In this document: positions 8,146 to 43,921 of the stretch, piece after piece
Position numbering within the stretch: the first letter of the stretch is position 1
Layout: every line of letters starts with the position of its first letter
Source of the DNA: Octopus vulgaris
Taxonomy: Eukaryota
Direction: 5' to 3'
Length of the DNA stretch: 64,000 bases
NCBI GenBank assembly: GCA_951406725.2
Contig: OX597824.1
Span: forward strand, 85,560,001 to 85,624,000
Made by a program: the position numbers and the translations under genes
Notes under the pieces: generated by a model
Databases searched by the model: none
What the model saw: the letters and a program-made list of their open reading frames with translations, nothing else
What the model was told of the DNA's origin: nothing

Positions 8146-9197
8146 GTCAGTGGTTTTTGACTTATTTCATTTGTAGCGCCCCTTTTAAGTAGTTGTTATG
8201 CCTAGTGCCCACCTAAGTGGTGAGTGTCGTATCACGGTTAAACTAACTTAAGATGGACGATAAATTATAAATTTTAATCTAAACCTGGATTATATAAGCT
8301 TTTAATAGTGATATGATAAAAAAAAAGTCATAAAAACAAAAGTTGTAAATTTACTTTATACATTTCTTTATAACCCACAAGGGGCTAAACATAGAGGGGG
8401 CAAACAAGAAAAGACAAAGGGATTAAGTCGATTACATCGATCCCAGTGCGAAACTGGTACTTTATTTATCGAACCCGAAAGAATGAAAGGCAAACTCGAC
8501 CTCGGCAGAATTTGAACTCAGAACGTAACGACAGACGAAATACATATTTCTTTATTACCCACGAGGGGCTAAACATAGAGGGGACAAACAAGGACAGACA
8601 TAGGTATTAAGTCGATTACATCGACCCCAGTGCGTAACTGGTACTTTATTTATCGACCCCGAAAGGATGAAAGGCAAAGTCGACCTCGGTGGAATTTGAA
8701 CTCAGAACGTAACGGCAGACGAAATACCTATTTCTTTATTACCCACAAGGGGCTAAACATAGAGGGGACAAACAAGGACAGACATAGATATTAAGTCGAT
8801 TACATCGACCCCAGTGTGTAACTGGTACTTAATTTATCGACCCCGAAAGGATGAAAGGCAAAGTTGACCTCGGCGGGATTTGAACTCACAACGTAATGGC
8901 AGACGAAATACCGCTAAGCATTTCGCCCACTGTCCTAACGATTCTGCCAGCTCGCCGCCTCTAAATTTACTTTATATATTACAAGTTAATGACTTCCCTG
9001 CGCCTGATGAGATCTCAGTATATTTTAATAAACATTACTAGTTTTATCATGTATAATACAATTACTACTATACATAAAATTTTTGTAAGTTATGTTACCT
9101 CACCTTCTCTCCCTCATCGCTCCCTAAAGCCTAACGTCCTCTTCTACTTGCCCTTGCCCAGCGTCCTCTTGTGGATTGTACCGCCAACATTGAGAAC
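8146..9197. mobile_element. Probable hAT-type MITE split by a SINE trimer
   Basis: cagtggttttt...gagaacctg ends; left part recurs inverted at ~51470-51582. Confidence 0.45.
8361..8960 (-). mobile_element. Head-to-tail trimer of SINE family A
   Basis: Three ~183-bp units, only the last with a complete tRNA head. Confidence 0.9.
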
Positions 9198-21510: not shown

Positions 21511-21629
21511 TGCTTACAGCACCTAGGTTTCCCAAGCGGTCACCCATCTAAGTACTAACTAGGCTCGATGTTGCTTAACTTCGGTGATCGGACGAAAACC
21601 GGTGCTTTCAACGTGATATGGCCGTGAGC
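21511..21629 (-). rRNA. 5S rRNA gene (solitary variant; may be a pseudogene)
   Basis: gctcacggccatatcacgttgaaagcaccggttttcgtccgatcaccgaagttaagcaacatcgagcctagttagtacttagatgggtgaccgcttgggaaacctaggtgctgtaagc; full length, internal A/C boxes intact. Confidence 0.93.
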
Positions 21630-31493: not shown

Positions 31494-31775
31494 GCGTGTG
31501 TATATCTGTATATTTATATTTAAAAAAACTTTATCATCTGAAAGTTTCCAACTTTTACTCTCTCTCACTTTGCATGTATACATATATACGTATTGTGTAT
31601 TTCCATCATTTCATTTCGTTATGTACTTTTAGGTTACACTAATATGATGATGCACAGTACAACTGTATATATATATATATGTACGTACGTACGTATATAT
31701 ATGTCTGTGGTGTGTGTGTCTATGAATATACATATATATATATAAAGGTACAAATATACATATGCATATACATGC

Positions 31776-31806
<31 letters not shown>

Positions 31807-31927
31807 TGTATGTATGTATGTATGTATGTATGTATGTATGTATAGCGTAAGTACAGATACAGAGTTGTACTGTGCATCATCATATTAGTTTAACCTAAAA
31901 GTACATAACGAAATGAAATGATGGAAA
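31263..31927. repeat. Two adjacent microsatellite-centred inverted duplications (31263-31595; 31600-31927)
   Basis: ~110-bp and ~65-bp near-perfect arms of otherwise unique sequence. Confidence 0.9.
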
Positions 31928-32254: not shown

Positions 32255-32604
32255 TACATATATATGCATGCATATATATGCATACATATATATACATGAC
32301 CACAGTCAAATGACTGAAACAAGTAAAAGAGCAAAGAGCAATATATAGATAGATAGATATAAATATAGATATATACATATATATATATATATATAATAAT
32401 TCTCTAAAAGAGATATAGACAGTAACTGCTCGATAACATAAGGGACTAAAGCCATCTGAATATGGCTAGGGACAGGGCAGGGTGGTGGGGGTGTTACTGT
32501 TGCATTTAGCCCCAGGCGAACATCGACGTCACCAGAAAGGCTCGACACCGTCACGGTGTCCTTATCCTGCAAAGGGAGGTAATTCCCCGATGAAGCGGAA
32601 ACCA

Positions 32605-32650
32605 CACACGGACCATGGTTTCAAGGTGTATTGCCTATCGTCGGCGTGTG
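32605..32650 (-). ncRNA. Extended type I hammerhead ribozyme
   Basis: Reverse complement of 32888-32933. Confidence 0.85.
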
Positions 32651-32887
32651 GTAGGCTTCCGCTTCCTCGACGAATTCTCACTCTGCAGGATATTCATATA
32701 TAGATTTTCAAGCAAAATACAGATGGCTTTAGTCCCTTATGTTATCGAGCAGTTACTGTCTATATCTCTTTTAGAGAATTATTATTGCTTTCGAACAGAT
32801 TTTCGAAATCAGCAAATGTATTTTGCTTGAAAATCTATATATGAATATCCTGCAGAGTGAGAATTCGTCGAGGAAGCGGAAGCCTAC

Positions 32888-32933
32888 CACACGCCGACGA
32901 TAGGCAATACACCTTGAAACCATGGTCCGTGTG
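32888..32933 (+). ncRNA. Extended type I hammerhead ribozyme (CCGACGA core)
   Basis: gaagcggaagcc-tac-cacacg CCGACGA t-agg-caataca-cct-t GAAA ccatgg TC cgtgtg-t-ggtttccgcttc: 6-bp plus 12-bp stem I with internal loop. Confidence 0.85.
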
Positions 32934-33101
32934 TGGTTTCCGCTTCATCGGGGAATTACCTCCCTTTGCAGGATAAGGACACCGTGACGGTGTCGAGCCT
33001 TTCTGGTGACGTCGATGTTCGCCTGGGGCTAAATGCAACAGTAACATCCCCACCACCCTGCCCTGTCCCTAGCCATATTCAGATGGCTTTAGTCCCTTAT
33101 G

Positions 33102-33175
<74 letters not shown>

Positions 33176-33212
33176 TATATATATATATATATATATAGAG
33201 GGAGAGAGAGAG

Positions 33213-33278
<66 letters not shown>

Positions 33279-34031
33279 AGTGAGTGAGAGAGAAAGTAGA
33301 GAGAAAGATAGATAGATACGTTATGCATGTATGTATGTGTGTGCGTCTTTGTGTTTATCTGTCACCACATGAGAAAGTATGTTAACGAATCGATTGAGCC
33401 CCCATAACGAATCGCTTGGGTCGCCGTAACGAATCGCTTGGGTCCCCGTAACGAATCGCTTGGGCAAAAGGTGTCCGATCACACTTAACTACTGAGTTCG
33501 ATTTGATTGGCTAAATCCTTCAAGACGGTACCCAAACATAGTGGCAGTTCTATACAAGCAAAAAAAATTGTATGTAAATGTGTGTGTGTATGTGTGTAGG
33601 GGGGGGGGGGGGCTGTGTGTGTACCTGGTCCACAAATGCAGCTAAAAACAGAGTAAGAACAGATACCCCCACGGGAGTCGAACAACGCATCTATGTCCCG
33701 CTACGTGACTGTGCTACCGTGTATGCCATGTAAACTCCGGAGAGGCAATATTGTCCAAATAAGACCTATGTACTCGTTAAGTTGACAATCTAGTCTTCTC
33801 TCTTCTCATATGAAAATTACAGTCAATTTAGTAACTTCTTCACCTCCAGTAATAGATAAGCTTATACAATCTGTGACACTGGACCCACGTAGACCAGCAT
33901 CAAATTGAAATTTTCTACTAGTTGTAAAGTGCATATTCAATGTCGTAAGGTTTATTTAATATATGCTGAACAAACACATGTTTACAAACTCATGCGGCCA
34001 GAGCTAATCTGAATTTCCAAGGTATATAAGA

Positions 34032-41891: not shown

Positions 41892-42032
41892 TAAATTCAT
41901 AAAAGTCAAATTATAAATGAAACCATTAAAAAATCACCAAAGACATACATACACACACCCAACCCGGGGGACCTAAAACTACGACCCATTGTAGCTGGCC
42001 CATCCTGTGAAACACACAGACTAAGTCTACTT

Positions 42033-43544
42033 ATGGAAATCCTCCTGAAACCCTTCCTTAAACATATCGATAGCCATATCAGAGATGACTTAGATATGTT
42101 AAACCACCTTCCAAAAAAAGCCAAGGAAGAAACAATCCTGGTTTCATTTGATGTAGTCAACTTGTATACCAGTATACCTCATAATTATGGACTGGAGGCA
42201 ATACAGTTCTGGTTAGACCAATTTCCGGAAGAAATACCAAAAAGGATCAGTAAAGAATTCATTACTAAATCAATTGAATTCATCCTACACAATAACCACT
42301 TCATGTTTGACAATACATTTTACCGTCAAAAATCCGGAATTGCTATGGGTACAAGGGCAGCACCAGTCATTGCGAACTTAACAATGGGATACATGGAAAT
42401 AATCATTTACCAGGAATCTTTATCAATCTTTGGAAACCCCCTCTCTCAATACATAAAAGAGAACTGGAAACGATTCTTGGACGATTGTTTTATTCTCTGG
42501 AATGAAAACACAGATAAACTCTTAAAATTTAAAAACCTATTGAACAGCATAAACCCAAATATACAGTTCACAATGGAATACAACCAAAAGGAGCTCCCGT
42601 TCTTGGATATACTAATTAAAAAAATTAACCTTAAAATAGAAACAGACATTTTCTACAAAGCCACAGACGCCAAACAATACCTTCTCTTTAATTCATGCCA
42701 CCCAAGACACACTAAAACAAACATCCCCTTCAACCTTGCAAGAAGGATATGCACAATAGTGTCAGAACAAAATACCAGGAACTTCAGACTGCAAGAATTC
42801 AAAAACACCTTAATTGACAGACATTACCCAGCTCAACTCATAGAGGATGGGATCAGACGTGCAACAGAAATCAACATAGAAACTTTAAGAAAAGTTCAAC
42901 ACAACAACACACCTTCCCCGAAAATACTACCTTACATATCTACATACAACCCCAGAAACAAAGAAGCTTTCACCATCATCACCCAGAATTTACCAATACT
43001 TCATAAAAACCCCAAATTAAAGGAAATTCTAAACATACACCAAATCATTAAAAGCTACAAACAGCCTAAATCACTTAAAAAGATTCTCACAAAGGCAAAA
43101 TTATCTTCTGAAATTACGGATGCAAAAGTAAAAAAATGTGGTAGATCGAACTGTGCAACATGTCCTAACCTACTAGAAGGATCAGAATTCTTCTTTAAAG
43201 AGGGACAGAAATTCAAGATCAAATCTAACTTTACTTGTGCCTCTGAAAACATAATTTATGTCATAAAATGCTCGGGCTGCCACCAAGACTACGTGGTGTC
43301 CACGGGACTATCACTCAGACGTAGATGCACACTGCATCGACAACAGATTGCATTCCCAGAATATAGAATGATACCTTTTAGTGAGCACATTGAGAAATGC
43401 GCAAAGCAACTACAACCACAATTTTTAATCTTTCCATTTTACCAATGTGCTTTCGGATCATCAACACAAATTAGACTAAACAAGGAAATATTCTTCATTG
43501 AAAAGTACAAACCCAGACTCAACTATCCAAACATAATAATATAG
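42033..43544 (+). CDS. Penelope-like reverse transcriptase + GIY-YIG endonuclease (N-terminally truncated)
   Basis: SFDVVNLYTSIP, GIAMGT, RFLDD, PFLDI, SCHP, CxxxxCxxC linker, NIIYVIKCSGC..YVV(G)STG, EH, EIFFIEKY..LN. Confidence 0.92.
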   Translation: MEILLKPFLKHIDSHIRDDLDMLNHLPKKAKEETILVSFDVVNLYTSIPHNYGLEAIQFWLDQFPEEIPKRISKEFITKSIEFILHNNHFMFDNTFYRQKSGIAMGTRAAPVIANLTMGYMEIIIYQESLSIFGNPLSQYIKENWKRFLDDCFILWNENTDKLLKFKNLLNSINPNIQFTMEYNQKELPFLDILIKKINLKIETDIFYKATDAKQYLLFNSCHPRHTKTNIPFNLARRICTIVSEQNTRNFRLQEFKNTLIDRHYPAQLIEDGIRRATEINIETLRKVQHNNTPSPKILPYISTYNPRNKEAFTIITQNLPILHKNPKLKEILNIHQIIKSYKQPKSLKKILTKAKLSSEITDAKVKKCGRSNCATCPNLLEGSEFFFKEGQKFKIKSNFTCASENIIYVIKCSGCHQDYVVSTGLSLRRRCTLHRQQIAFPEYRMIPFSEHIEKCAKQLQPQFLIFPFYQCAFGSSTQIRLNKEIFFIEKYKPRLNYPNIII

Positions 43545-43694
43545 AGAAATTCACACTAAGAGAAAAAGGGAAAAAAATTTTTTAAGCGATTATCTCCCTT
43601 ACACCGGAAGAAATCACGCACTACCTTCCCTTATTTAGAACTCTCCGTAGCAAAAAAACAAGGATAACGCTATTAAAGATAAACATTACGTCGC

Positions 43695-43733
43695 AAGAAA
43701 TTTGAAGAGCTAAATGCGAAACCGGTCTTTCTT
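43695..43733 (+). ncRNA. Hammerhead motif in Penelope 3' region (C3U, possibly inactivated)
   Basis: aagaaa-t TTGAAGA gc-taaat-gc GAAA ccgg TC tttctt. Confidence 0.7.
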
Positions 43734-43864
43734 TAAAAATTATAAAATTATGTCATTATAAGAAGGGAAAAAAATTTTTCCAATATTCTCCAGACATATT
43801 GACGCAAATATATATATTCTTTAACATTTAAGCCTTCTGTCGTTTTTTCACTCTTTACTATTTT

Positions 43865-43921
<57 letters not shown>

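Follow-up and report, generated by a model that had tools for sequence, protein, structure and literature searches.

What kind of element leaves slightly more than one round of a 360-nt unit, together with an inverted copy of itself, inside a dinucleotide repeat? The question is raised by a tract in the 64,000-nt stretch of Octopus vulgaris DNA analysed here (the window), which a first-pass annotation had read as a candidate retrozyme, that is, the DNA copy of a small circular RNA reverse-transcribed for more than one round. The exact 25-mer that it placed at both ends of the tract (32720-32744, repeated at 33080-33104 with a spacing of 360 nt) and the (TA)n surroundings were both recovered, the latter at 32376-32392 and from 33105 on; sequence and a repeat scan delimit the left and right parts of the target at 32376-32392 and 33106-33197. 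Numbering the unit from window position 32720, the plus arm (32720-33105) consists of a full 360-nt unit (32720-33079) followed by unit positions 1-26, and its 3' end, referred to as site A, enters the (TA)n. The insertion has in addition a minus-strand arm missing from the annotation (32393-32721), which is inverted and 5'-truncated, runs from unit 98 to 360 and then from 1 to 66, ends at a second site (site B) and bears a tail, its outer segment at 32393-32432 (minus strand) being assigned to the tail-bearing side by the arm-end analysis. As an inverted repeat, the insertion has 289-nt arms that are 100% complementary, and these stop at different fixed sites, unit 66 for the minus and unit 26 for the plus arm.

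The unit has a GC content of 46% and, as the annotation held, no credible ORF: once circularised, it contains 3-7 stops per round in every frame, and its longest ATG ORFs span 35 aa on the sense and 70 aa on the antisense strand. Folding of the 360-nt unit yielded a z-score of −7.0, with none of 100 shuffles as stable. The tail region, made up of the 44 nt from site A to site B and with an internal copy at 32746-32789 (plus strand), is predicted as a stem-loop in some folds, namely as a single hairpin in the unit and circular folds but not in that of a 115-nt fragment, and is kept in the sister family described below. Two further parts of the plus strand stand out: a palindromic hairpin at unit 258-275 (32977-32994), where 5' truncation and inversion junctions pile up, and a motif at unit 295-329 (33014-33048), which the sister family and older relatives have retained and which may be a candidate protein-binding or promoter element. 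A short GGGGCTAAA word is common to this motif and to a 184-bp unit present in three tandem copies (93% matches) at 8362-8912. Elsewhere in the window, 3.7 copies of a 22-bp unit lie just downstream of the insertion (33383-33464), a 76-nt inverted repeat (93%; 31600-31675 and 31852-31927) flanks a microsatellite and could be either another tail-out inverted insertion or a MITE-like element, and a full-length 5S rRNA match (21511-21629, minus strand; 106.5 bits) stands isolated.

The retrozyme reading involves a type I hammerhead with an extended stem I, located at 32873-32946 (plus strand) with a predicted cut after C32927, and present again in the inverted arm at 32592-32665 (minus strand; predicted cut at 32611). 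Its helices lie where the annotation had put them: a stem I of 6 bp (32888-32893/32928-32933) plus 12 bp (32873-32884/32935-32946) with a 3x1 internal loop in between, a short stem II (32902-32904/32912-32914) and a palindromic stem III (32919-32926) next to the GUC cleavage triplet, whose C17 is 32927. The GAAA at 32916-32919, A15.1-U16.1, the UH cut site and C3-G8 are likewise canonical. The type I assignment stands as regards the three helices, GAAA and the cut site, but the core deviates from it in two respects that had gone unmentioned: 32894-32900 reads CCGACGA (U4C) rather than CUGANGA, and the 10.1-11.1 pair (32901/32915) is U-U instead of G10.1-C11.1. An Rfam hammerhead scan, which the annotation had proposed, was run on the window and returned no hammerhead match at the gathering score or at E ≤ 10. 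Folding of the hammerhead region gave a z-score of −8.3, with none of 200 shuffles as stable.

The variant core recurs throughout the family. Positions 3-4 are CC in 336 of the 343 cores read and UU (C3U) in the other seven, and CCGA was found in 100 of 100 cores listed, i.e., in at least 100 of the 1,223 genome matches to a pattern that permitted either base. CTGA combined with the same stem III has 40 genome matches, only one of which carries the stem II of the family and spans an inversion junction, while the other CTGA matches sampled (15 fetched) are older relatives or belong to another family. Over about 300 copies the core region is near-invariant. Covariation was scored across eight relatives (the window unit, an older subfamily, the sister family and 5 of 15 old loci): 95.6% of the cells for 12 helix pairs are paired and 8 of the 12 pairs have changed on both sides, a result reached by 0 of 500 shuffles and by slid controls only up to 40%. 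We consider the slid control the weightier one, because related sequences can beat shuffles.

How active such a hammerhead might be can be gauged from known variants. In the relevant passages of PMC3088659, U4C considerably reduces activity in vitro, although viroids bearing it can still be infectious, and a U10.1-U11.1 mismatch is tolerated, while a passage of PMC4209133 ties palindromic stems III to dimer cleavage. By analogy, the palindromic stem III of this unit, with a duplex computed at −11.2 kcal/mol, points to possible cleavage as a dimer; in a model that ignores tertiary contacts, the monomer pays 8.8-9.7 kcal/mol for adopting the active instead of the preferred fold. We regard the motif as a U4C core variant and a putative weakened ribozyme, and count both the core and the unfavourable active fold against the active-ribozyme part of the explanation favoured below.

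We then asked how widely the unit has spread and where its copies end. A DNA similarity search returned 1,040 candidates, the best 40 of which were scored and gave 190 matches; full-length matches were 98-100% identical, with one exception at 92%, and many lay in 360-nt tandems. The exact core pattern matched the genome 1,223 times (control pattern, 0), and exact end patterns followed by TA occurred 436 times for unit 70 and 526 times for unit 26, which implies several hundred insertions. As judged from the sequences of its copies, the family is very young. For the analysis of ends we assembled 117 non-redundant loci, selected for similarity, for a core-pattern match on C1 or for a unit-70 end on C1-C3, the last of which favours B ends; 9 overlapping loci were dropped, 3 swapped for longer cuts and 2 merged. 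The set comprises 89 head-to-head pairs with their 3' ends outward, 22 single arms and 6 complex loci.

The annotation had described the unit as circularly permuted and suggested tabulating start points, end points and multimers genome-wide. On the 117 loci this yielded abundant multimers but no random ends: 204 of 217 arm 3' ends fall at site A (unit 14-27, mostly 26) or site B (unit 63-71, mostly 70), with 44 nt between them, so that free circular permutation of the copies is not borne out. Among the A or B ends scored, 191 of 202 run into a TA tract. As to the 89 pairs, 84 combine one A with one B end, 5 have one odd end, and none is A+A or B+B. In contrast to the 3' ends, 5' ends are dispersed over the whole unit and accumulate at the 258-275 hairpin (32/217 at unit 255-266). 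There is no clear 5'-end peak at the predicted cut site (6/217 at unit 207-212 versus about 3.6 expected), and an RT stop there was rejected on these counts; three arms terminate exactly at unit 210. The tandem nature of the unit and its copying for more than one round are confirmed by arms of up to 14.7 units and insertions of up to 23.1 units, in arrays dispersed over many contigs. At the junction between arms (n = 88) the overlap is 0 in 25 cases, 1-2 in 27 and at least 3 in 23, and 13 show a gap. Fold-back of a single cDNA was rejected as the general source of inversions, since either arm can far exceed the other: the A arm is longer in 32 pairs, the B arm in 26, and 14 are about equal. 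The correlation of arm lengths differs by sample (rho −0.01, n = 21; rho 0.82, n = 32).

This anatomy recalls Penelope-like elements (PLEs). According to the pertinent passages of PMC8557442, PLE insertions are 5'-truncated, often accompanied by an inverted copy, carry a 30-40-bp tail at one end and prefer microsatellites. With a purified Poseidon PLE, predicted to be a dimer, both target strands are nicked and extended, and reverse transcription begins at two internal sites whose spacing equals the tail (PMC11167929). Two fixed 3' ends and a one-sided 44-nt tail are this PLE tail signature, so that the element acts like a non-autonomous passenger of PLEs; the pairs further reveal that in vivo each insertion uses one start site per strand (84/89), a strand difference absent from Poseidon_Ac in vitro (PMC11167929).

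Fixed 3' ends would also be expected if the unit were simply the pLTR or 3' end of an autonomous PLE yet to be found, as the annotation had cautioned for copies with fixed ends attached to a PLE ORF, or if it were a satellite expanded at the DNA level after insertion. The first half of that caution holds, the fixed 3' ends being present, but not the second: tblastn with a PLE protein matches 5 of 165 loci, none of which (0/165) has a PLE ORF adjoining the 5' end of an arm, and the upstream flanks of the 22 single-arm loci have no junction-adjacent sequence in common. The unit is not merely a pLTR because of these two results. Furthermore, arms traverse many full units seamlessly, both arms are multimeric and the arrays are scattered over many contigs. 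Our comparison covered two PLE families, and the GIY-YIG search the best 150 of 6,136 candidates, which leaves this account some room; we nonetheless hold it to be very improbable. That the unit is a real, young and non-autonomous element mobilised by PLE machinery is, on the other hand, almost certain.

A sister family, traced via the loose ends of contigs from sequencing runs, obeys the same rules. Its 355-nt unit (L170-L189) is 75% identical to the 360-nt unit, has 327 pattern matches in the genome and displays the same two 3' ends, the same one-sided tail and inversions. Its core is UUGACGA (C3U, with G8 kept), and changes in its palindromic stem III are compensatory. UU at core positions 3-4 also characterises an older subfamily of the 360-nt unit (L194, L197, L209 and one arm of L012), and the change from UU to CC marks the most numerous subfamilies. 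Older diverged relatives (L071-L085) have tandem spacings of about 330-347 nt and canonical CUGA cores, and L076/L077 represent a separate hammerhead family.

Which PLE might supply the protein? The GIY-YIG search (best 150 of 6,136 candidates) uncovered many 781-aa open frames, and fourteen copies fetched (L156-L169) are 91-99.7% identical to one reference. Intact copies have two ORFs, a 479-aa ORF1 and a 781-aa RT-GIY-YIG ORF (e.g., L158, 568-5290), and a CX4CxxC linker which, by comparison of this motif with a passage of PMC8557442 rather than by a tree, suggests that the family is Neptune. The ends of these elements, which lie in (TA)n, occupy two positions separated by 40 nt (nine ends at one, three at the other), and one inverted insertion, L164, has one of each; CCAAT-like repeats occur in the 3' UTR, and a minimal hammerhead, read by eye, has U3-A8. 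A second candidate partner lies within the window, where a 5'-truncated PLE between two (TA)n tracts (41895-43867, plus strand) represents another young family, with copies 97-100% identical (best 40 of 1,780 candidates) and an RT-GIY-YIG 57% identical to that of the 781-aa family. Its minimal hammerhead (43702-43727, also read by eye) has a UUGAAGA core and a palindromic stem III, so the hammerheads of both PLE families have U at position 3, like the sister and older retrozymes. No homology to the unit was alignable in either of these two families, and an autonomous partner identified by homology was discarded for both. Exact look-up of the PLE proteins gave 0/4 matches, and named homologs came only from bivalve-symbiont bins.

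We next considered the template of the multimeric arms. Thirty-two of the 39 arrays with at least three units are clonal in the sense that no minor allele occurs in more than one unit, and the 39 represent 26 haplotypes, a number slightly inflated by ties and uncovered sites. Differences between arrays average 6.3, and 3.9% of array pairs are identical. Within loci, 158 of 227 full units equal the locus majority and the mismatch is 0.15%; ten locus-private variants are fixed in all units, seven of them in both arms, and a private variant is present in every unit of a 13.8-unit insertion. In 60 of 73 pairs the two arms match at common sites, compared with 14% for shuffled arms. Clonal arrays that differ from one another favour rolling-circle reverse transcription of one template, since repeated monomer passage followed by amplification is what a circle would give, and an RNA circle is likely to be the usual template. 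Gene conversion after insertion can also homogenise tandem and inverted units. No A-to-I editing signature was found, single-unit changes being as frequent on one strand as on the other (A>G 15 against T>C 15; G>A 36 against C>T 35) and the template-level excess of A>G over T>C (10 versus 5) not significant.

Seven of the 39 long arrays are mosaic, which points to multimeric or mixed templates and fits poorly with a single monomer circle. In L123 a variant is confined to the final unit of each arm, L040 alternates with period 2, L062 and L190 arrange a few unit types differently in one arm than in the other, and L012 has arm-specific alleles with three differences. Such mosaics could stem from circles of two or three units, from linear multimers, from template switching or from later gene conversion. 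Alternatively, arrays could be built from cleaved linear monomers, the RT hopping again and again from the 5' end of one copy to the 3' end of that molecule or of a different one, as the recurrence of the same few unit types in different arm orders (L190, L062) and the three arms finishing exactly at unit 210 might suggest. However, jumps of non-LTR RTs usually add or lose bases, whereas the predicted cut site is crossed 362 times with only 3 indels within 4 nt, one of them a 28-nt deletion spanning the site, and most arrays are clonal. These figures speak against end-to-end jumping, which we deem improbable, and leave a circle and an uncleaved multimer equally compatible.

The uncleaved multimer is the more serious competitor. 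The same PLE machinery might copy a linear multimer with a slow or dead hammerhead, no circle being needed, and the variant core, the unfavourable active fold and the variants restricted to certain units, which recur in register in both arms or periodically (L123, L040, L190), all accord with this, as do the seamless crossings. Indeed, in the only PLE tested in vitro hammerhead cleavage is dispensable for insertion and unprocessed RNA is the main substrate (PMC11167929). Linear copying with 5' truncation, however, can only shorten arrays, and 26 clonal haplotypes of up to 23 units with fixed private variants need monomer passage and then re-amplification; moreover, there is covariation in the helices and hardly any change in the remainder of the core. 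Overall, we find a linear template unlikely as the rule. Contigs from sequencing runs were examined as well. Among the runs listed as containing the unit none is on record as RNA, and 14 can be taken for RNA by guess only. Runs X1, X5 and X7, from three studies and not on record as RNA, each contain one 390-nt contig covering the unit (360 + 30), which fits a closed assembly-graph loop, genomic tandems or multimeric RNA alike and was not counted for circles or expression. Two X9 contigs ending at 32928, beside the cut site, were read as a graph branch because they end 30 nt past a variant site.

Together, these data lead us to favour, with moderate confidence, a young non-LTR retrozyme moved in trans by the RT/GIY-YIG protein of an EN+ PLE. 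Tandem arrays would be transcribed, and the weakened hammerhead would cut the RNA slowly, probably as a dimer via its palindromic stem III; as in known retrozymes, a monomer, sometimes a dimer or trimer, would then be ligated into a circle. Consistent with the end pattern observed, the PLE protein would nick both (TA)n strands, and the two 3'-OH ends would prime reverse transcription of a single RNA, with unit 70 as the starting point of one and unit 26 of the other. Each RT would run on the presumed circle for part of a round to about 15 rounds, the range that arm lengths and clonality record, and the two cDNAs would be joined head to head, often at the hairpins or short overlaps seen at the junctions, into the inverted insertion with a 44-nt tail at one end that the loci display. 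More speculatively, and with some doubt on our side, a PLE RT dimer could grip a small RNA circle at the 44-nt stem-loop, the target strands being primed at its two feet and both RTs rolling round one circle. This would create a multimeric head-to-head insertion in one event and allow the partner to be recruited by RNA shape without pLTR homology, and weakened cores could have been fixed twice (UUGA, then CCGA) because a slow ribozyme spares circles and multimers.

The youth of the family means that each insertion still records its event in the two-site tail, the use of one site per strand and the clonal multimers. Since the genome also encodes intact candidate PLE proteins, both the mover of the retrozyme and the circle template become directly testable in vitro. 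The family is spreading, and its hammerhead core escapes standard models; on the speculative reading above, CUGANGA-based surveys would overlook such retrozymes with variant cores, which could far exceed current counts. In the octopus and cephalopod literature on retrozymes and hammerheads covered here, including passages of PMC8557442 and PMC10886601, the family is undescribed, in agreement with the first-pass annotation; Repbase, Dfam and subscription papers lie outside this scope, and it may be catalogued there as a repeat.

Structurally, and save for its non-canonical core, the unit appears to behave as a metazoan non-LTR retrozyme. The latter are described in the relevant sections of Cervera and de la Pena 2020 (PMC7229834) as dispersed tandem repeats of 150-450 bp with less than 50% GC, and the 350-390-bp units of mussels, for instance, resemble ours in being non-coding, tandem and below 50% GC, with one type I hammerhead per unit and a short palindromic stem III; axolotl HHR_Amex2 also has U-U at the base of stem II. 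Unlike them, the present family has U4C, and C3U together with the original G8 is found in its older subfamily and in the sister family. Its mostly head-to-head insertions, two fixed 3' ends and one-sided tail are absent from the descriptions in those sections, and its cleavage and circles are predictions. Where metazoan non-LTR retrozymes have target-site duplications, these exceed 4 bp; inside (TA)n they are unreadable.

Mobilisation of retrozyme circles by PLEs was proposed, not shown, in the defining papers on animal retrozymes, as far as the pertinent text of PMC7229834 goes. In the corresponding passages of their preprint, Li, Clavereau and Pollet 2026 (10.64898/2026.07.22.740005) regard non-LTR retrozymes as non-autonomous PLE derivatives, on the basis of pLTR homology in Xenopus, and prefer local tandem amplification. 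Intact PLEs in the same genome and a proposed use of their machinery are common to both cases, but here no pLTR homology was found with two PLE families, the PLE signature being carried by the insertion anatomy instead, and the arrays look multimeric from the moment of insertion rather than locally amplified. Chlamys PLEs such as MRC1 in green algae are similarly non-autonomous, multicopy head-to-tail and moved by PLEs but, in the passages of PMC8557442 devoted to them, generally have 3' sequence in common with autonomous partners and lack canonical hammerheads. The insertions themselves find their closest parallels in EN+ PLEs (Neptune/Poseidon, in passages of PMC8557442; Poseidon_Ac, PMC11167929), with which they share 5' truncation, an inverted copy, a 30-44-nt one-ended tail, an AT-rich or (TA)n target, a hammerhead upstream of the 3' end and two RT start sites, and from which they differ in having no ORF and in arms that are multimers of one short unit.
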